A stretch of 64,000 bases of DNA from an uncultured Chloroflexia bacterium (GCA_963766645.1 CAVYAY010000002.1:1318529-1382528), one strand, 5' to 3'. Shown: positions 4,237 to 39,225, numbered from the stretch's first letter. The notes: a model not told the origin generated them from the letters alone. Made by a program: numbers and translations.

Positions 4237-5153
4237 TTAACTGATCGTTTCGGTCGTGGGAGTCAGGCGGCTTTTCCATGATTCGAGTCCGATCTGGCCC
4301 TGATACTCCTGCAGTAAGCGCATGAGGAGACGTGAAAGACAGAGCGAGGGCCGGAACGCGAGGGTGCGTCTTCGAGGGGCGCGGACCTCCATGACCTCCA
4401 TCGCCTCTTCGACCAGGCGGGTCACTTCCTGCGGGCTGGAACCACGGGCGAGCAAGGCTATGACGAGCGCGTCCTCCTCCCGGCGCGGGACCATGGGGAA
4501 GCTCGGCATGAGATTCTTCCAGGTATCGCTCCATGGCGCCGCGGCTGCGGTCGAGATCGGGGTCGTCGAGGTTGAGCTCGTAGGTGCCGGAGTGCGACGT
4601 CGACTCGGAGTCTCGCAGCCAGTGCAGCTTCTGCTGCGATTGGCGCAAGGAGCATCGTCGCCTCGGTGGTGGCGCCGATGGCCTGCCGATCCAGGTCCTG
4701 GTCGGTGCGGACGGCGGAGTGGACGGCGCGAATCAAGCCGGAGGTCAGGAAGTCGTCCTTGGCGACGTACTCCCAGGCGCCTGCCTTGATGGCCGCGGCG
4801 GCAATATGCTCGTTGCCAGCGCCGGTGACCAGGATGACATGGATCAGCGGCCAGCGGTCGTGAATCGTCTCGACGAGTTCGAGCCCGCTCATACGCGGCA
4901 GCCCCTGGTCCGCCAGGACGACGTCGAAAGACTCACGGTTGAGGCGTTTCAGGGCCTCCTCGCCGGTCTCGGTCGTGGTGATCCGTTTGGCGCCGAACTT
5001 CTCCATGGCGCGGGCGATCAAGGTCTTGTCCAGGGGATCGTCTTCGACGATAAGGACGCGCATGGAGCGCGGTGAGAAGGGTTTGAGGTCTGGCTTGGCT
5101 TCGTCGGTCCTGGTAAACAGCGTCTTGATCATTGAGACTGCCTCCACTTTCAT
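4237..5153 (-). CDS. CheY-like response regulator with uncharacterised C-terminal extension, frame-disrupted downstream of the receiver
   Basis: Receiver motifs MRVLIVEDDP, DVVLADQGLPRMSG and ILVTGAG..AIKAGAWEYVAK are in ORF 4458-5153. Coding-like continuation runs in ORFs 4226-4648 and 4237-4509. Confidence 0.7.
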
Positions 5154-5250
5154 GAGTGAACCGCCCGGGCGCCGGCATAGGGCCGGGGCGGCGAGCTGGT
5201 TTCACTATCTTGTCCTCGTATTTCGGCAGGAAGTCTCATGTCGTTAGTGT

Positions 5251-7251
5251 TTGCGCCGATTTCCAAGAACAGTGTTCAGTACTTTTCGCAGTCGCCTGCT
5301 CCTTCTGTTCGCCGCCGCGATGTGCCTTCCTTTGCCCTCATCGTTTTCATTGCAGTGCAGCAGCAGCAACAAGAGCGCCGCGGAGCCGGTGATGACGCCC
5401 TGCGTTATTCCGAGACCGTTGGTTCCGAAGTGGAACGTTCCATCGGCTCGATCGAGGATCTGCTGGGCTCGCTGTCGCTAAACCCCGCGCTTCAGAACCG
5501 GGACGTCGATGCCTGTAACCAGCTGATGGCGAGCATTCCGACCAGCTTTCCGGCGTATCAAGATGCCTACTTCTTCGTCGCGGATCCAGGTGGCGATATC
5601 TTCTGTTCCAGCGTACCGCTCGACCCGAACGTACCCGCTGTGAACATCGCCGACCGAGGCTACTTCCAGCAGGTTGTCTCCACCCAAGCGTTCGCGGTCG
5701 GCGAATACCAGGTCGGGCGCATTACGGGCATCGCGAATATCGCCCACGCCACTCCAGTCTATTTGGAAGGGGAGATGGTGGCGGTGGTCCTCGCAACGGT
5801 GCCTATTGCGGTACTGAGCCAACGCGTCGCCGACGTGCCGCTGCCTGAAGGCGCTATCTACAGATTGCTCGACCGCGGTGGCACCGTACTTGCCTCCAAC
5901 GCGGATTCTGATTCGTGGACCGGGCAGCGATGTGGCACGCTCCGGGTTGGTATTGGCTCTGGGCGGGCGATTCCGGCACCGCCGAACTGAAGGGTCTGGA
6001 CGGCGAATCGCGGCTTTACGGCTTCACACCTGTCGGCGATCCCAGGTTACGGGCCTGACCGACGTGGTAGGCGTACCAACCTCGGTCGCCTTTGGCGCGA
6101 TTAACCGCGATATGGTCCGTAATCTGGCGCTGCTTGGCGTTGTTGCGGGCGTTGCCCTGATTGCCGTCTGGATGGGCTCAGGCTTCCTGACCAGACAAAC
6201 GCGCCACCTCATTGAGGACGTGCAAGGCTACGCCCGTGGCGAGACCCGCCAGCACGTTCCCAAAGGGCGCGGGGCCGTGAGCGAAATTACGGAGCTGTAT
6301 AACGCTTTCGATGCTATGGCCTCCGTCATCGACCTCAGAGAGGTGGAGCGCGGCGAGGCGGTGGAGGAACTGGAGGAAGCGAACGCTCACCTGGAGCGCC
6401 GCGTCGCCGGCCGCACCCGGGAGCTCAGCACACGCAATATGAGGCTGGAGCACGAGGTCGAGCAGCGAAAGTTGGCCGAAACTGAACTCGAGCGCTACGC
6501 CGTTGAGCTTTCGCGTACCAACGAGGACCTCGAGGCGTTTACCTACGCCGTGAGCCATGACCTCAAAGCCCCCTTGCGGGGGATCTCAGGCTTCGCGTCG
6601 ATGGTAATGGAAGACAATGCGGACACCCTAGACGAGACGGCGTGCGAGAACCTGACCATCGTCATGGAGAGCGCCGGGCAGATGCGGCGGCTGATCGACG
6701 ACCTCTTGAATCTATCTCGCATCGCCCGTAACGAGAACGGCTACGTTGACATGTCGATGTTGGAAGCAGTGCGCGAGGTGGAGTCGGAGATAGCATATGC
6801 ACTGAAGGAGAAAGGCATCGTTCTCAAGGTTGCAGACGATCTGCCGACGATTCACTCCGGCCCAATTCGCGTTAAACAAGTCCTGCGCAACCTGCTAGGC
6901 AATGCGTTGAAATACGACGACAACCCGAACCCGAAGATCGAGGTCGGTTGGCAGCAGGACGACGCGGCGAGCTATACGTTCTTCGTGCGCGACAACGGCA
7001 AGGGCATCGACAAGCGCTTCCAAGATCGCATCTTCGGAATCTTCCAACGGCTGGACCCCAAGCTGGAATCCGAGGGCACGGGCATCGGCCTCACCATCTG
7101 TAAGAAGGCGATCGAGTCGCTCGACGGCAGAATCTGGGTCGAGTCTGAGCTCGGCGCGGGTAGCACCTTTTACTTCAGCCTGCCGATAACTAACACTGAG
7201 GCAACTGATCAACCAGCCCCGGATCCTGCTCGTGGAAGACAATCCGCTTGA
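5251..7251 (+). CDS. sensor histidine kinase (TM - Cache-like - TM - HAMP - coiled coil - HisKA - HATPase_c), frame-disrupted in the sensor part
   Basis: H-box FTYAVSHDLKAPLR, N-box LLGNALKY, G-boxes DNGKGI and GTGIGL. The periplasmic Cache-like region is in ORF 5238-5990. The TM N-terminus (FRSRLLLLFAAAM) is in ORF 5251-5481. At least 3 frame changes lie between 5350 and 6060. Confidence 0.8.
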
Positions 7252-7666
7252 CGTAGCGCTGACTCGACGCGTCTTCGCAAGACAGGCCAGCGATATTTCA
7301 ATCAGGCACGCGAGCGACGGCCTGGAGGCCGTCGAGTTCCTGCGCAGTGACAGCGAGCCTTTACCCAGCCTGGTCCTCCTGGACCTCAACCTACCCAAGA
7401 TGAACGGCGTCGAAGTGTTGAACGCAATGCGTTCCGACGCGGCCCTGCGGTGTATTCCCGTTATCATGCTGACGACGTCGACGCGGGAAGAAGACATCCG
7501 GCGCTGCTATGAAGCGGGCGCGAACGCCTACATCGTCAAGCCGGTCGACCTGGCCGAGTTTCAGAGAGTGATCGACACCTTGCGCCTCTTCTGGACGGAG
7601 ATGGTGACCTTGCCAGAGCCACAATCGCAGCCACGGCAGATCGATTCGAAGCGCGAAGCCGCCTAG
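7232..7666 (+). CDS. single-domain CheY-like response regulator (Rcp1-like)
   Basis: SLVLLDLNLPKMNG, IPVIMLTTS and AGANAYIVKP. The conserved beta-1 strand (RILLVEDNP) starts upstream of the first canonical start (GTG 7232) in the same open frame (open from 7190). The real start may therefore be non-canonical or upstream, overlapping the kinase 3' end. Confidence 0.85.
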   Translation: MEDNPLDVALTRRVFARQASDISIRHASDGLEAVEFLRSDSEPLPSLVLLDLNLPKMNGVEVLNAMRSDAALRCIPVIMLTTSTREEDIRRCYEAGANAYIVKPVDLAEFQRVIDTLRLFWTEMVTLPEPQSQPRQIDSKREAA

Positions 7667-30918: not shown

Positions 30919-30994
30919 TGGCGCGCTGGGAGGGACTCGAACCCTCGACCTCTGCCTCCGCAGGGCAGCGCTCTATCCGCTGAGCTACCAGCGC
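30919..30994 (-). tRNA. tRNA-Arg with anticodon GCG
   Basis: Minus strand: GCGCTGG-TA-GCTC-AGCGGATA-GAGC-G-CTGCC-CTGCGGA-GGCAG-AGGTC-GAGGG-TTCGAGT-CCCTC-CCAGCGC-G-CCA. The D-loop GGAUA gives A20, an Arg identity element. The anticodon loop reads C-U-G-C-G-G-A. Confidence 0.85.
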
Positions 30995-30999
30995 GGGAA

Positions 31000-31087
<88 letters not shown>

Positions 31088-31130
31088 GGACTCCTAGTCT
31101 ACAACGTTGAAAGGTACGGGACACCCCCGT

Positions 31131-31419
31131 GGCTTTGAAAGACGGGGACACCCCGTGCCCCGCTAAGGTGCGCACGAGACGTCCTGGTTCTTGGTTGCTA
31201 GGCCTCGATGGCCTGAGCGTTGATTTGGCTTCGAAAGACGGGGACACCCCGTGCCCCGCTAAAGGGGCGCACGAGGCGTCTGGTTCTTGGTTGCTAGGTC
31301 TCGCTGGCCTGGGCGTTGATTTGGCTTTGAAAGACGGGGACACCCCGTTCCCCGCCGAAGAGGCGCATGAGGCCTCGAAGGTCTTGGCCGCTAGGCCTCG
31401 ATGGCCTGGGCGTTAATGT
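31131..31419. repeat. three tandem ~96-bp repeats reiterating the 3' end of the yceI-like gene
   Basis: Units start at 31131, 31227 and 31323 (GGCTT[T/C]GAAAGACGGGGACACCCCGT..). Each ends with a copy of CTAGGCCTCGATGGCCTG.GCGTT.AT (31198, 31294, 31391), the reverse complement of ..INAQAIEA-stop. Only the last copy is part of the CDS. Confidence 0.85.
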
Positions 31420-33821: not shown

Positions 33822-34289
33822 CTAGGACGAGCACTCCGGGTTAGCCACCGGCCAGGTAACTCCGACGGTGAGCGCCTCATAGCATCGTTTCGAGACGTCA
33901 ACCGTCACGATGACCAGATTGAGGCCGCCCACTGTGGTGCCTCCGCCGCTCACCTCACCCCTGGCGGGCAGGTTGGCGCATTCGCCCTCGCTGAGCAGTT
34001 CCTCGTGCCCAGCGTCATCCCGGCTGACACACTCGGGAGGGGCGACGAACCCAACGTGGGCTTCATAGGTGCGAGAACGCAGAGGCAAGCCGAGGACGGT
34101 CAGCCCGCCGCTGGCCCGGAGATCAAACACGACGCCTGTAGAACCGTCGCTGGCGGGGTCGGGAATTGGTCCTGTCGCGGGTGATTCGGTCGTCGTCCGG
34201 GTCGTGCCGAAGGCGCCTGCGCCCAGCGCCACGATAATCGCGACCGCAACAACGCCTGCCAGGATCATCCAGGGTGCGTCACGACTCAT
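33822..34289 (-). CDS. hypothetical exported protein, last gene of the SipW-type cluster
   Basis: N-terminal hydrophobic segment ending ALGAGAFGTT. The mature part is Cys-containing and beta-rich. It is co-directional and 142 nt downstream of the RTX-like gene. Confidence 0.45.
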   Translation of the reverse strand: MSRDAPWMILAGVVAVAIIVALGAGAFGTTRTTTESPATGPIPDPASDGSTGVVFDLRASGGLTVLGLPLRSRTYEAHVGFVAPPECVSRDDAGHEELLSEGECANLPARGEVSGGGTTVGGLNLVIVTVDVSKRCYEALTVGVTWPVANPECSS

Positions 34290-34431
34290 GGCGTCTCCAT
34301 CGTTGCCGCGCTATGCAGCACGACGGTCTTATTGTTGAAGGAGGGGCTTTGGCAGGTGTGCTAACCGCCCCTGTGGTGCCTTTGGTTGGATTGTAGGTAG
34401 CGGCAGGCGGGGTGGCAACGCAGGCGCGGCG

Positions 34432-35760
34432 TCAGGGGGTGGCGGTTTCGGTCGGGTCCGGGGCCGCTGTTTCGATTGGGTCGGGCTCCGACGTTGGGCT
34501 GGGTGATGGCGTCTCGGTTGGCACTTGCGTGGTTGTCGGCGATGGCGAAGCGGTGGCTGTCGGCTGTGGCGTTTGGGTTGGCGAGGCGGTGGCTGTCGGC
34601 TGTGGCGTCTTCGTTGGCGTAGCGGTGGCCGTCGGCTGGGGCGTCTGCGTGGGCGACGGCGTGGCGGTTGGGGACGTCGTGGCGGTTGGGGACGTCGTGG
34701 CAGGCGTTTGCGTTGGCTCGGCAGTGGCTGTCGGAGTCGCGAGGCTGGAGACGATGGCCGGGGCTTCGTTGGAGGGCTCCGACTCGAGGCCTTCGATGAT
34801 CGCGGCGGTGACGACGTAGTAGTAGGTCGTGTCCTCGGCGACGCCGACGTCGGCGAAGGACGTGTCTGCGGTGCTGCCGAGCGGGACGTAGGGGCCGCCG
34901 GGTGTCTTCGAGCGGTAGACGTTGTAGTACATGGCTTCTTCGGCGGGCTCCCAGGTAATGACGATAGTGGGGATGGAGTGGTGGCCTTCTGCCCAGCAGT
35001 CGTAGGGGCCGCCGGGGTGCTCGCAGTTGGTGATGCTGTCGGTGCCGTCACCGCCGTCGCAGTAGTCGAAGCCGTCGCCGCCGTCGAGGGAGTCGTCGCC
35101 GCGGCCGCCGTAGAGCTTGTCGTCGTCGGGGCCGCCGTTGAGGTAGTCGGGGCCGTTGCCGCCGTAGAGGCGGTCCTCGCCGGGGCCGCCGTAGAGCGTG
35201 TCGCCGGCGTTCTGGGCGTAGAGGCGGTCGTTGCCTTCGCCGCCGACGAGGACGTCGACGCCGTTTTCGCCGTAGAGCTTGTCGTCGCCGGGGCCGCCGT
35301 CGATGCAGTCTTCGGCGTTGCCGCCGTAGATGACGTCGTTGCCGCCGAGGCCGAAGATCAGGTCACGGCCGTTGGTGCCGTGGAGCTGGTCTGCGCCCTC
35401 GGTGCCGACGACGACGTTGTCGAATTCGAGGGAGGCGCATTCGGGGGGAGGGGCGGGGTGCTCGGGCTCTGGGGTGATCCAATTGCCAGAGGCCGCCTCA
35501 GCCGGCCCAGAGACGCCACCTGACCAAGCGAGCGCGCTAGGTTGTATGAGACCAAGCAAACTGAGCAGCAGCATGACGGCGAAGAGACCAATGGCGAGGA
35601 CGTCGCGATATGCGGATCGTCTCAGTTGTGGCACCGGACTACCGATAGAGATCGTGGCCTCCGGTCGGTAACTACCAGCGTGAGGAGACCGAACTGACCA
35701 GAGAACCAGCGTTAGGAGTCCAAGCAGAAGGAGCCCAAAGAGCTTTAGGATGGCCTTCAT
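34432..35760 (-). CDS. exported protein with RTX-like Ca2+-binding nonapeptide repeats, FN3-like domain and PT-rich C-terminal tail
   Basis: At least 10 degenerate GGxGxDxL/I units ([52 protein letters not shown] ...). An FN3-like segment follows ([24 protein letters not shown]). The tail is ~110 aa of PTATxSPTQTPQ-type repeats. Two N-terminal hydrophobic segments are present, the second ending SALAWSGG. Confidence 0.7.
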
Positions 35761-35763
35761 CCG

Positions 35764-36360
35764 TTAAGCCCGGAGTCCAACCTTCCGTCGCCTCATCCAT
35801 GCTTTTGTTTCATAGAATCCCCAACCGAGAGCTGTAATACCAGCAATGAGGAGCAGGAGCTGCTGCAGCCGGAATTCCTTGAATAGGAATCCAATCTCGG
35901 GAATCGTCAAGAAGACCTTGCCCCTGAGCCTTTCAGGAGTGACGAATCCCGAGTCTTGTGTGACATTCGCATCGCCCTTCGTGCGGATCTGCCGTACGGT
36001 TTGCGTGTACTGCTCGCCGGTCTCGGAGTCCGTCACATTCACGACGAGGTTGACGAACCCAATCGCACGATGCGCAGCCAGGAACTTCAGATCTTCGCCG
36101 ACTTCGAACAGAATGATCTCACCGACCTTAACCGAGCTCGAACTCGCTGGCTTCGTCACGATGATGTCGCCGCGGCTCAGTGCTGGCTCCATGCTTCCAG
36201 ACTGAACTGTCGTAATCCTGTAACCAAGTGCCTGTGTAACGAGGAGTCCCAGAACTAGGATGCCGAGGATTGACGAGAAAAGCAGGCTCCCGAGAACGCC
36301 TGCTGCCGTTGCCAAAAGCGAAGGCTGGCCCTGTCTTTGAGCTGCTGTGTTAACGGCCAT
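35764..36360 (-). CDS. signal peptidase I, archaeal/ER (SipW) type
   Basis: VQSGSMEPALSRGDIIV, AAHRAIG and TKGDANVTQDS match the Ser/His boxes of SipW-like S26B peptidases. It has N- and C-terminal TM anchors. Confidence 0.8.
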   Translation of the reverse strand: MAVNTAAQRQGQPSLLATAAGVLGSLLFSSILGILVLGLLVTQALGYRITTVQSGSMEPALSRGDIIVTKPASSSSVKVGEIILFEVGEDLKFLAAHRAIGFVNLVVNVTDSETGEQYTQTVRQIRTKGDANVTQDSGFVTPERLRGKVFLTIPEIGFLFKEFRLQQLLLLIAGITALGWGFYETKAWMRRRKVGLRA

Positions 36361-36374
36361 GAGTCTTTCTCCGG

Positions 36375-36412
36375 GGTTGGGAGGTTGGAGGCAAACCTCT
36401 AACCTCCCAACC
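36375..36412 (-). promoter_or_regulatory. 12-bp perfect intercistronic stem-loop between the TasA-like gene and the peptidase gene
   Basis: GGTTGGGAGGTT (36375-36386) and AACCTCCCAACC (36401-36412). On the mRNA it sits 14 nt after the upstream stop and just before the GGAGAAAG ribosome-binding site of the peptidase gene. No U-tract follows. Confidence 0.6.
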
Positions 36413-36426
36413 GATTAAACTCTCGG

Positions 36427-36897
36427 CTATGTCGTCACGTTGATCGTGACGGTGAAGTCGATGTTGCTGTTCTGACAAGAGTCAGGTAGGTCTGCGTCGG
36501 CATTCAGTTCAACCGACCACAGGTCTGAAATACCACCGCCACCGACGACTACGCTCGTGTTGGCGAGCCGCTGAACTCGGCCAGTTGTGTGAGCCGAGCC
36601 GCCGCAACCCAGGTCATAACTAATGCCAGTAACGGTCCCGGCATCGAGGCCACTTTTCACGTGAACGTCCACGTCCCCACAGTTGTCAAGGCCACCCTTG
36701 TACACCTGTGTCCAGCCACCATTAGGGACAACAGGATTTGCGACAGTGCCTTCATCAAAGAAATTGACGCACACTTGTCCGGCTACTGCGCCGTTGTCGA
36801 TACCGCCGGTCTGGCTACCGGTCCATGCTAGGGCGGCCCCAATGAGACCAGCAGCCAGGAGGGAGACGATAATCGTCCCGCCAAAGAACTTACGCAT
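36427..36897 (-). CDS. small exported protein with SipW-cognate (TasA/camelysin-like) signal peptide
   Basis: MRKFFGGTIIVSLLAAGLIGAALAWTGS resembles the ..GGGTWA.F class of SipW-dependent signal peptides. The mature part is beta-rich with several Cys. It is the first gene of the cluster. Confidence 0.5.
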   Translation of the reverse strand: MRKFFGGTIIVSLLAAGLIGAALAWTGSQTGGIDNGAVAGQVCVNFFDEGTVANPVVPNGGWTQVYKGGLDNCGDVDVHVKSGLDAGTVTGISYDLGCGGSAHTTGRVQRLANTSVVVGGGGISDLWSVELNADADLPDSCQNSNIDFTVTINVTT

Positions 36898-37411
36898 AGC
36901 TAACTCCTACATCAATGACCCACGCCGCCTCCCCGTCGGTACGCAGGTCTGCGTGTCCTAACGATGTGGGGTCCGTTTAGAAAGAGATCGCTCCCGTATC
37001 ACCTCCCTGTGGGGGCGAACGGGAGCGAGTGTGATTGCTTTCGCCACGTAGAAGGCCAGGCGCGCCTTTGATTAAAGGACGTAGCCTGGCCTGCTACGAT
37101 GGGAAGGCAATGTGAGTGGCGCTTACACTCCCGTTGCCCCGGCGTCTCGCGGTTACCGCCACGAGGCGCCGTTTTCTATTCAGCAAACAGCCGGTCGCGT
37201 TGCCGCGTCCGGCTGGTCACCGTGGGTCATGTGGCGTCGTAGTGGCGACAGGGGGCGTGATTACACCGCACCTTGCGTTGCCTGACGACGCCGGCCCCGT
37301 GCTCGGGGCCCGTATCCTCCTTGCCCCGAATCGAGGCGAGAGGCGGGGTGCGGGAGCAGAGGCGGGGGTGCGGGAGCTTGGTACGCATACGTTATGTTCG
37401 TATCAAGTGGC

Positions 37412-37440
37412 ACTCTAGAGACGCAGGCGATCTATGTCAA
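37412..37440 (-). promoter_or_regulatory. near-consensus sigma70-type promoter reading toward the SipW-type cluster
   Basis: Minus strand TTGACA (37440-37435), 17-nt spacer, TAGAGT (37417-37412). It lies about 510 nt upstream of the ATG at 36897. Confidence 0.5.
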
Positions 37441-37537
37441 GGGTGTGTGGATGCGAAACGAGAATTTCACTAAAGGATAGATATAAGAAATGCACTTCCT
37501 ATTTAGGTTGGAAACGAGACGTTAGGGCGAAACGTGA

Positions 37538-37613
37538 TGGTGGGCGGTACAGGACTTGAACCTGTGACCTCTTCCGTGTGAAGGAAGCGCTCTGCCAGCT
37601 GAGCTAACCGCCC
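37538..37613 (-). tRNA. tRNA-Val (CAC)
   Basis: Minus strand: GGGCGGT-TA-GCTC-AGCTGGCA-GAGC-G-CTTCC-TTCACAC-GGAAG-AGGTC-ACAGG-TTCAAGT-CCTGT-ACCGCCC-A-CCA. Confidence 0.93.
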
Positions 37614-38480: not shown

Positions 38481-39225
38481 GAGGGGACACCCCTCGGGCT
38501 CCCCGCGCATGGGCTGCGCCCCCGCTACCCCTGCAGGCGTGCGACGACGACGTGGCGGTGCGTTGAGTTGAGTATGGACTCTGCAGGATGAATGATGCAG
38601 CTTCGATGGACGGGGCGTTTGAGGGTGCCCCGCCGGACGGCTGATCTGCTGCGCCATCCGGACGACAGTGACACAGGTGGGACACCCCCTCGGGCTCCCC
38701 GCACATGGGCTGCGCCTCCGCTACCCTTGCAGGCGTGCGACGACGGCGTGGCGGTGCGTTGAGTTGAGTATGGACTCTGCAGGATGAATCCTGCAGCTTC
38801 GACGGATGGAGCGTTTGAGGTGCGCCGCTGGACGGCTGATCTGGTTCGCCATCCGGAGAACATCACTGCATGGGGAATTCGCCTCGGGCTCGACGCAGGG
38901 GCTGCGCCGTGCTCATGGAGGTGTGCGACGACGACGGGGAGGTGCATTTGGTGCGAACTCTGCAGGATGAATGATGCAGCTTCGATGGACGGGGTGTTTG
39001 AGGGTGCGCCGCCGGACGGCTGATCTGGTTCGCCATCCGGAGAACATCACTGCACGGGGAATTCGCCTCGGGCTCGACGCGCAGGGGCTGCGCCGTGCTC
39101 ATGGAGGTGTGCGACGACGACGAGGAGGTGCATTTGGTGCGAACTCTGCAGGATGAATCCTGCAGCTTCGATGGAGAGGGCTCATATCTCTCTTCGCCTG
39201 CCTTGAGTGCAGGCGTGCTGCCTTC
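38481..39225. repeat. array of four ~185-195-bp tandem repeats with internal CTGCAGGAT-N3-ATCCTGCAG palindrome
   Basis: The CTCGGGCT landmark recurs at 38689, 38883 and 39067, and an equivalent lies near 38494. Units 1-2 carry GGGACACCCC..GGGCTGCGCC..TGCAGGCGTGCGACGACG. Units 3-4 carry GGGGAATTCGCCTCGGGCTCGACGC..GGGGCTGCGCCGTGCTCATGG. All carry CTGCAGGATGAAT[GA/CC]TGCAGCTTCGA. Confidence 0.9.

Follow-up and report, generated by a model that had tools for sequence, protein, structure and literature searches.

Dedicated signal peptidases of the endoplasmic reticulum (ER)/archaeal type that act with polymerising matrix proteins have been characterised mainly in Bacillota (TasA, CalY and BsaA), and related fibres are known in a few archaea. 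The Chloroflexota, Dehalococcoidia included, have few cultured members and their surface appendages are largely uncharacterised. We discuss here three adjacent genes on the minus strand (36897 to 34432) of a 64,000-nucleotide stretch of DNA from an uncultured Chloroflexia bacterium (GCA_963766645.1 CAVYAY010000002.1:1318529-1382528), which we call the window. Gene 1 encodes a small secreted protein, gene 2 a signal peptidase and gene 3 a large modular protein, and an earlier note on this DNA had taken them, with a fourth gene, as a SipW-type signal peptidase operon with three putative cognate substrates.

The B. subtilis tapA-sipW-tasA locus has three genes with an ER/archaeal-type peptidase in the middle, of which both partners are substrates (PMC10151520, PMC9674648, PMC9245690). 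The major subunit is TasA, and TapA, the larger and rarer accessory, has an N-terminus that resembles the N-terminal strand of the subunit and is donated to TasA (PMC10151520; see also PMC9674648). In the sipW-bsaA-bsaB-bsaC locus of C. perfringens a large VWA protein accompanies small subunits, which polymerise by donor-strand exchange ahead of cleavage by SipW (PMC11580942); in the model that has been proposed, a monomer still anchored by its signal receives the donor strand before SipW cuts it (PMC11580942, PMC7395162). In Pyrobaculum the beta-rich subunit AbpA is processed by signal peptidase and polymerises by a donor strand, and its larger neighbour AbpB, with distal adhesin domains, is the proposed initiator (PMC9245690).

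The locus in the window is like tapA-sipW-tasA in having three genes with an ER/archaeal-type peptidase in the middle and partners that are both predicted substrates, one a putative major subunit and the other a larger, presumably rarer, accessory with a similar N-terminus. It differs in that the order is reversed, with the subunit first and the accessory last, and in that the host belongs to the Chloroflexota and not the Bacillota. The mature small protein has about 130 residues where TasA has 234, and it has W-T-G-S in place of A-F-N-D. The gene 3 product lacks a TapA-like domain, and in its place there are exchangeable modules of the RTX, FN3 or beta-helix type.

We suggest that genes 1 to 3 are a self-contained secretion-maturation module of the Chloroflexota, with named relatives in the Dehalococcoidia, and for this reading as a whole we think the chances are about even. 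Its parts are better considered separately. Gene order and a shared motif make it highly probable that the peptidase is a dedicated one with two cognate substrates. That the product is a strand-exchange polymer is argued by analogy, and for this we put the chances at even or a little less.

The case for a unit comes from 33 related loci, which were recovered through relatives of the peptidase, through genome and metagenome scans and through distant members of the small-protein family, and were tested for synteny by tblastn with the four window proteins. The scan of species-representative genomes, made with 10 closer small-family sequences, gave three matches, all in metagenome-assembled genomes (MAGs) of Dehalococcoidia, and the metagenome scan gave 15 loci. 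The nearest relatives found, on which a taxonomic placement of the window from its sequence would rest, are Dehalococcoidia/Chloroflexota MAGs. Among the loci from the peptidase look-ups and the two scans there are 28 with enough sequence, and in all of them the small gene is followed by the peptidase gene, with a third gene after the peptidase in nearly all. The distant small-family member in locus L030 is also followed by a peptidase gene. This strict order is kept although the proteins are only 32-50% identical across loci. The window locus has tRNA-Val (37538-37613) on one side and unrelated metabolic genes on the other, its flanking genes being those for EthD, DLH and FAA hydrolase proteins, whereas L003, L013 and L014 have enoyl-CoA hydratase and a 455-aa protein, with a PALP enzyme on the opposite side. 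Since the flanking genes differ between groups of loci, the trio moves as a unit.

Within the window the four minus-strand open reading frames (ORFs) lie where the earlier note had placed them, with gaps of 66, 3 and 142 nt, and the ATG of gene 3 is 3 nt past the stop codon of the peptidase gene. The G+C content is 60-70% throughout the window. The note had proposed conservation of all four genes as a test, and it is found for genes 1 to 3 as a unit and not for the fourth.

Two of the related loci have unusual arrangements. In L034, from a Chloroflexi MAG, a 581-aa ORF (5706-7451) fuses the peptidase to a membrane segment, the sequence SQWTADG...AGYW and a very long Pro/Thr (PT) repeat, which suggests that the smallest functional unit is the N-terminal peptide with its linker; the small protein of this locus is named only "hypothetical protein". 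In L031 (1-5495) the small gene is present as four paralogs and the third-type gene, with Ig-like repeats, as two copies, all in tandem, an expansion as would be expected for major and minor subunits. There is no peptidase gene within the 8.9 kb of sequence available for L031, and it may sit elsewhere on the contig or genome.

Gene 2 matches the NCBIfam model for archaeal-type signal peptidase I (TIGR02228) with 61.5 bits, the cutoff being 51.85. Ser56, His97, Asp130 and Asp136 are invariant in an alignment with named SipW, archaeal and ER-type enzymes, so that the catalytic pattern is Ser-His and not Ser-Lys, with conservation of the Asp residues of the GDxxxxD box, and among solved structures human SEC11A and SEC11C are nearest in sequence. 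From the model score, the invariant residues and the nearest structures, gene 2 is thus classed as a Ser-His enzyme of ER/archaeal type. With the Bacillus SipW equivalog model, NF046067, it scores 54.9 bits, far under the cutoff of 190, and the claim of a SipW-type peptidase therefore stands for the type of enzyme but does not extend to orthology with SipW; "SipW-like" is a fair description. The protein has one N-terminal and one C-terminal membrane segment. Its close relatives are of 186-216 aa with 41-52% identity, and the peptidases of the trios form a clade (about 45% identical) with a sharp gap in similarity between it and all other S26 enzymes, matches being at E 1e-33 or better and then at about 1e-12. 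An insert of about 14 residues, located after His97 and before the RTKGDAN box, is private to the clade.

Locus L012, from a Dehalococcoidia MAG, has a second and different SipW-type system (5116-7663) about 0.5-1.2 kb downstream of its trio. It comprises proteins of 202 aa and 212 aa, the latter with ...SMAYALWFEDLQANIDVTTGTLDG and an N-terminus that is TasA-like to the eye, and after them comes a polytopic membrane protein of 406 aa, the C-terminal domain of which is an archaeal-type signal peptidase (TIGR02228, 81.8 bits). The two small proteins of this second system have no match in Pfam or NCBIfam, the SipW-cognate models included. As L012 has two different SipW-type peptidases, each beside its own small secreted proteins, the enzymes appear to be system-specific.

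The products of genes 1 and 3 have in common an element that lies just past a hydrophobic segment and can be written G-x-[AV]-x-A / W-[TS]-G-S-(about 9 residues)-G-x-hydrophobic. The features quoted in the earlier note are all present, namely GAALAWTGS in gene 1, SGSMEP, HR and TKGDAN..D in gene 2 and PSALAWSGG in gene 3, and the A-L-A-W-[ST]-G motif that it had drawn from them proves to be real and far beyond chance. When both sets of proteins are aligned on the Trp it is found in register in all 41 small proteins and all 17 distinct third-gene products. In the small family the residue at -1 is Ala in 39 and Ser in two, Gly is at -5 in every sequence and the residue at -3 is always Ala, Val, Thr or Ser (41/41 in each case); +1 is mostly Thr and +3 mostly Ser, and a Gly at +13 or +14 is followed by a hydrophobic beta-strand. 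In the third-gene products -3 is Ala or Val in 16, while at -1 there is an Ala, Thr or Gly in 13 of them, a Pro in three and a Gln in one. On the other side of the Trp they have Gly at +2 (13 of 17), Phe at +8 (14), Gly at +13 (16) and Trp at +15 (14), and then a Pro-rich linker. The small-family hidden Markov model (HMM) aligns in register to the N-termini of the third-gene products of L019 and L020 with E values of 5e-5 to 7e-5.

The -3/-1 rule predicts a cut after the near-invariant Ala, so that the invariant Trp would come first in the mature protein. A single HMM alignment with TasA would put the cut one residue earlier, which is less likely as it places Leu or Phe at -1. Conservation extends for about 15 residues past the predicted cut in both families and in the same register, which argues that the motif has a role in the mature proteins and not in recognition alone.

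Gene 1 has no match in Pfam or NCBIfam, sequence and profile searches of the PDB were empty at E<=10, and a word-based homolog search gave one relative only. When 1.84 billion cluster representatives were searched exhaustively with a profile, 48 were found at E<1e-3, nearly all of 141-189 aa, and judged by this search gene 1 is the founder of an unannotated family of about 145-165 aa that has no curated model. The earlier note did not recognise the composition of the locus as that of a described system, and this agrees with our searches, which gave no Pfam or NCBIfam models, and with the names in the sources seen, which are only "hypothetical protein".

An alignment of 41 members of the small family has G20, W25, G40, N72 and C98 invariant and A24, P58 and C141 nearly so. 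The N-terminus is conserved as MRK[LF]F...G-x-A-[LF]-A-W-T-[GS]-S, and the sequence of the signal peptide is conserved to a degree unusual for signal peptides. There is also a conserved C-terminal strand, CQG..[IV].Y.VT.NVxT. The mature part has no conserved Lys and has a conserved Cys pair, C98 and C141, which suggests a likely disulfide. Other kinds of N-terminal signal were rejected on inspection: there is no G/F-type site before the hydrophobic stretch, as in a class III (prepilin) signal, no Cys at +1 for a lipobox and no twin Arg for a Tat motif.

AlphaFold2 (AF2) with the 41-sequence alignment gave a model of gene 1 with a mean confidence (pLDDT, predicted local distance difference test) of 89.9, whereas a two-sequence alignment gave an unusable model with a pLDDT of 35. 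The better model has a helix at residues 2-23, a coil of lower confidence at 24-43 and a seven-strand beta-sandwich at 44-152. The extension formed by residues 25-43 holds the invariant Trp and the AG-x-V that begins strand 1, with T, G and S also conserved, and on the model it is a candidate donor strand.

The gene 3 product has the motif directly followed by a Pro-rich linker and then three kinds of domain. The RTX region matches PF00353 with 90.4 bits (E 6.4e-26, cutoff 23), and its DNA has a 27-nt period in 11.1 copies by Tandem Repeats Finder; the GGxGxD repeats of the earlier note are thus confirmed as calcium-binding RTX repeats, with a count of 14 in place of about 10. The FN3-like module that had been proposed is present, although the Pfam fn3 model gave no match in gene 3: phmmer against the PDB found 3MPC, "Fn3-like protein", at E 7.3e-11 and 5G56 at E 2e-9. 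The PT tail is also as described, being of 105 aa where 110 aa had been given, and its DNA includes a 36-nt tandem repeat in 3.4 copies (34535-34656).

Homologs of the third protein have either one or two hydrophobic segments or a single one that is preceded by a long hydrophilic region at the N-terminus. Their bodies vary while the N-terminal module is constant: many have RTX, others are FN3-like, L017 has a NosD-type beta-helix with Big_1, L031 has Ig-like repeats and L034 has a PT tail alone. Because the bodies vary between loci, the N-terminal peptide is the constant part of the third protein, and because homologs carry other domains in the place of RTX, the latter is to be seen as a passenger module and not as the defining feature.

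L012 is 65% identical to the window in the large protein, 37.5% in the small protein and 45% in the peptidase. L008 and L016 have a small protein closer to that of the window (49%) and a large protein of different architecture. Such discordant divergence suggests recombination or module swapping inside the operon.

With regard to TasA itself, we made a 29-member TasA/CalY alignment based on a TasA query that is identical to 8AUR over residues 28-261. Comparison of the small family with this by hhalign, signal peptides included, gave a probability of 39% and E 3e-4 over the signal peptide and about 55 mature residues, in a register that aligns Ala24 with TasA Ala27, AG-x-V-x-V with AGTLDL, P-x-G with KPGD and N-x-G with NNG. 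Without the signal peptides E was about 0.1, against 0.16-0.5 for reversed controls, which is not significant, and the same is true of a profile of the divergent sub-clade. PF12389 (Peptidase_M73) is the commonest family among weak matches and matches six of the 41 small-family members, the best being P0108 (residues 3-85, 21.4 bits, cutoff 22.5). In some members the similarity takes in the signal peptide and the first ~60 residues and keeps a consistent register; the gene 1 product itself is not matched. The SipW-cognate models TIGR04088, TIGR04089 and TIGR04090 had no match of E<=1 among the window proteins, nor one of E<=10 among their N-terminal segments, and against the 41 small-family members gave only sub-threshold matches (E 0.11, 0.16 and 0.0018). 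A Foldseek search of the PDB with the gene 1 model found nothing at E<1e-3, and the TasA jelly-roll (5OF1, 8AUR), than which the modelled seven-strand sandwich is smaller, was outside the top 50. The weak matches (E>=0.06, with a template modelling score of about 0.3) were mostly chaperone-usher pilins, CBM3 modules and NBR1, and included the donor-strand pilins Caf1, FimA, CsuA/B, PapA and CfaB.

Remote homology to TasA that is confined to the N-terminus is possible on these comparisons, and membership of the TasA family is not established. We have not filed the small family under TasA/camelysin, as the similarity is borderline, confined to the N-terminus and lost without the signal peptides. 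The analogy to TasA and camelysin made in the earlier note thus holds for the logic of the operon, and homology is not established by PF12389, hhalign or Foldseek. The note had also named findings that would speak against it, and here the outcome is divided, as there is no match to a cognate-signal HMM while the predicted site is not an ordinary LepB site and the three-gene unit is conserved.

The other described systems have resemblances of the same general kind. The C. perfringens locus likewise combines a SipW peptidase, small polymerising matrix subunits and a large secreted accessory of adhesion type, and one small-family member, though not the window protein, weakly matches the BsaA family model TIGR04090 (the E of 0.0018 given above). 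BsaA differs in being TasA-related and locked by a Lys-Asn isopeptide bond, whereas the small family has no conserved Lys in the mature part and has the Cys pair, and the accessory domains also differ. With AbpA and AbpB the locus shares a beta-rich subunit that is a predicted signal peptidase substrate and a larger neighbour, the peptidase here being of archaeal type. However the archaeal locus has no dedicated peptidase, AbpA is a jelly-roll homologous to TasA, and no sequence or Foldseek link was found. Chaperone-usher pilins (Caf1, FimA, CsuA/B and PapA) are Ig-like sandwiches of similar size with a flexible N-terminal extension, but here there are no chaperone or usher genes, assembly would be tied to the signal peptidase and the structural matches are not significant. 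The lineage of the Chloroflexota is generally regarded as having no outer membrane. The 14 GGxGxD nonapeptides of gene 3 are those of RTX proteins. Classical RTX proteins use type I secretion, directed by a signal at the C-terminus. In the gene 3 product the membrane or signal segments are N-terminal and the C-terminus is a PT tail, and the genes around the locus look to be metabolic.

The mechanism that we propose is as follows. The products of genes 1 and 3 would be exported by Sec and then cut by the dedicated peptidase at Ala/Trp, so that the mature proteins would begin with Trp. The small protein, predicted to be a disulfide-containing seven-strand sandwich with a flexible 19-residue extension, is taken as the major structural subunit. 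By analogy with TapA/TasA, AbpB/AbpA and BsaA, the N-terminal peptide would insert as a strand into a neighbouring small subunit, and small subunits joined head-to-tail would form a polymeric fibre or matrix outside the cell. The third protein would plug one end, where it may start assembly and display its Ca2+-stabilised adhesive module. If so, the locus would represent an undescribed class of fibre in Chloroflexota/Dehalococcoidia, built by strand insertion from a sandwich of about 130 residues that starts with Trp and has its own archaeal-type peptidase, and in which a 16-residue N-terminal peptide attaches adhesin or enzyme modules that can be exchanged for one another (RTX, beta-helix, FN3, Ig). 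This fuller proposal we put forward tentatively, with distinctly less confidence than the module itself. Such a fibre would either belong to a very remote and much reduced branch of the TasA superfamily or have come to the same logic of assembly independently.

Besides the features of the module, the reading has in its favour the low-confidence N-terminal extension of the AF2 model, the donor-strand pilins that dominate the weak Foldseek matches and the faint N-terminal similarity of some small-family members to camelysin/TasA. Several observations weigh against it. The comparisons of the mature small protein with TasA, and those with the SipW-cognate models and the PDB, gave nothing significant, and the AF2 monomer looks like a complete sandwich with no free acceptor groove evident. 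Pro or Gln at -1 in four third-gene products makes a poor signal peptidase I site. The C-terminus of gene 3 has no visible sortase motif or membrane segment, and the mature product would after cleavage have no obvious cell anchor. A transcript search found the locus in DNA metagenomes only (soil, freshwater sediment and salt marsh). The 64-kb window has no LepB-type housekeeping enzyme. The chief alternative is that the peptidase is dedicated to its two substrates and there is no fibre, the mature proteins being released or surface monomers, perhaps a Ca2+-dependent adhesin and a small binding or S-layer-associated protein, with W-T-G-S as a recognition and cleavage determinant only. The evidence for a module is equally compatible with this, the complete sandwich with no significant structural match to filament subunits speaks for it, and the passengers (RTX, beta-helix, Big_1 and FN3) are typical of adhesins or enzymes. 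It does not readily account for the conservation past the predicted cut, where both families have Gly at +13 and a hydrophobic residue at +15 in the same register, nor for the Pro linker directly after the peptide, the peptide itself being in L034 nearly the sole non-repetitive extracellular sequence, and tandem paralogs of the small gene are typical of polymer subunits. We regard it as rather unlikely.

Two further alternatives concern the processing step and are much less probable. The peptidase could be the general signal peptidase of the cell, as some Chloroflexota might depend on an enzyme of archaeal type, its position between genes for secreted proteins being of no substrate-specific meaning. 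A motif scan found no other S26 peptidase in the 64-kb window, a result that speaks for the window alone, and the archaeal TasA-like protein AbpA is processed by a generic peptidase (PMC9245690). We nonetheless think it improbable, given the strict gene order at 32-50% identity and with differing flanks, the fusion of peptidase and third protein in L034, the two different SipW-type peptidases with their own neighbours within 5 kb in L012, and the separate clade with its private insert formed by the trio peptidases. The hydrophobic segments could also be uncleaved and both proteins membrane-anchored, with W-T-G-S serving glycosylation, attachment to lipid or envelope, or mutual docking, and with the peptidase acting elsewhere or in a non-canonical way. 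This would fit the unusual conservation of the primary sequence of the hydrophobic segment (MRKLF...G at -5), the Pro or Gln at -1 in some third-gene products, and the long cytoplasmic N-termini or two membrane segments that these products often have, as do true membrane proteins. However the -3/-1 rule is kept in all 41 small proteins, the catalytic Ser, His and Asp of the peptidase are intact, and SipW-class signal peptides are also conserved enough for HMMs to be made (TIGR04088), and we consider this alternative the least probable of those discussed, if only by a little. The reading as a dedicated secretion-maturation module thus keeps the archaeal/ER-type peptidase, the linkage to secreted neighbours and the shared motif of the earlier note, and reduces the three substrates to two, with homology to TasA not established.

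The third of those substrates was to have been the product of the fourth gene. Its signal region does end in ALGAGAFGTT as had been reported, but the W motif is missing, and the gene has no tblastn homolog in the 33 related loci, among which are L012, the closest, and some whose sequence continues for several kb downstream. The 142-nt gap on its upstream side contains a promoter-like site, TTGCCA-17-TACAAT (34390-34418). The protein has an N-terminal membrane segment and four Cys (87, 104, 136 and 153), and its only matches, sub-threshold and at the membrane segment alone, are to the family models of mycobacterial Rv0361 and Rv3627c. It was considered as a paralogous subunit and rejected, as it is unrelated to the small protein (BLASTP E 0.58). 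With no motif, no homolog at related loci and a promoter-like site of its own, the fourth gene on present evidence lies beside the module and does not belong to it, and there are two predicted cognate substrates and not three.

The leader upstream of gene 1 has a promoter-like site, TTGACA-17-TAGAGT, at 37412-37440, and from there onward it folds better than shuffled sequences (z -7.5). A block of 67 nt in it (37086-37152) is 91% identical to 2006-2070 of L012, upstream of the small gene there, where the proteins are 37-65% identical. The groups L003/L013/L014 and L008/L016/L018/L017 have conserved upstream blocks of their own, and several of these loci share CCGGAAAGGAG at 110-175 nt upstream of the start codon. 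In the leader neither an Rfam family nor a conserved small ORF was found, and it may be regulatory. The coordinates of the main features of the locus are given in Table 1.

Table 1. Features of the locus, by position in the window
Feature	Position	Strand	Basis or comment
Leader/intergenic, non-coding, 640 nt, tRNA-Val to gene 1	36898-37537	-	
Gene 1, small secreted protein, 156 aa	36427-36897	-	ORF; putative major subunit
Gene 1 signal peptide, aa 1-24, MRKFFGGTIIVSLLAAGLIGAALA	36826-36897	-	AF2 helix 2-23; -3/-1 pattern; predicted cleavage A24/W25
Gene 1 mature N-terminal extension, aa 25-43, WTGSQTGGIDNGAVAGQVC	36769-36825	-	Predicted; coil, pLDDT 60-73
Gene 2, archaeal/ER-type signal peptidase I, 198 aa	35764-36360	-	ORF
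Gene 2 catalytic Ser56 and His97, plus Asp130/Asp136	Ser56 36193-36195; His97 36070-36072	-	Alignment
Gene 3, large modular accessory protein, 442 aa	34432-35760	-	ORF
Gene 3 hydrophobic segments, aa 4-23 and 54-72, with Arg-rich loop between	35545-35751	-	Sequence; topology inferred
Gene 3 shared motif, aa 79-94, following PSALA	35479-35526	-	17-product consensus; predicted cleavage A78/W79
Gene 3 RTX calcium-binding beta-roll, 14 nonapeptides, aa 119-244	35029-35406	-	PF00353
Gene 3 FN3-like domain, aa 265-333	34762-34968	-	phmmer vs PDB
Gene 3 Pro/Thr-rich tail, aa 338-442, 58% P+T	34435-34749	-	Composition
Fourth ORF, 155 aa, neighbour outside conserved module	33822-34289	-	ORF

Some other features were noted in passing. 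A conserved protein of about 455 aa, with an N-terminus like that of lipoproteins and an HEA[IV]H motif, is encoded directly upstream of the trio in L003 (4512-5882), L013 (4074-5441) and L014 (4135-5505); it has no counterpart in the window and may be a metalloprotease. The window has on its minus strand a cyclic di-AMP riboswitch of the ydaO/yuaA type (RF00379, 56049-56183), with 98.3 bits, well over the gathering score. It also has two non-coding tandem arrays, one at 31130-31414 with a 96-nt unit in 3.0 copies (87% matches), beside tRNA-Leu and tRNA-Arg (30919-31085), and the other at 38578-39175 with a 186-nt unit in 3.2 copies (84% matches).

The finding is purely computational and overturns no concept. 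The module would nevertheless carry a TasA-like logic into the Chloroflexota, with a family of substrates that is annotated only as "hypothetical protein", and it has a sharply defined processing site, Ala/Trp-Thr-Gly-Ser, that can be tested. The annotation of these genomes would gain from curated HMMs of the small family and of the N-terminal motif. A short N-terminal peptide appears to be sufficient to couple very different passengers, and this could explain how Dehalococcoidia of sediment and soil attach or aggregate.

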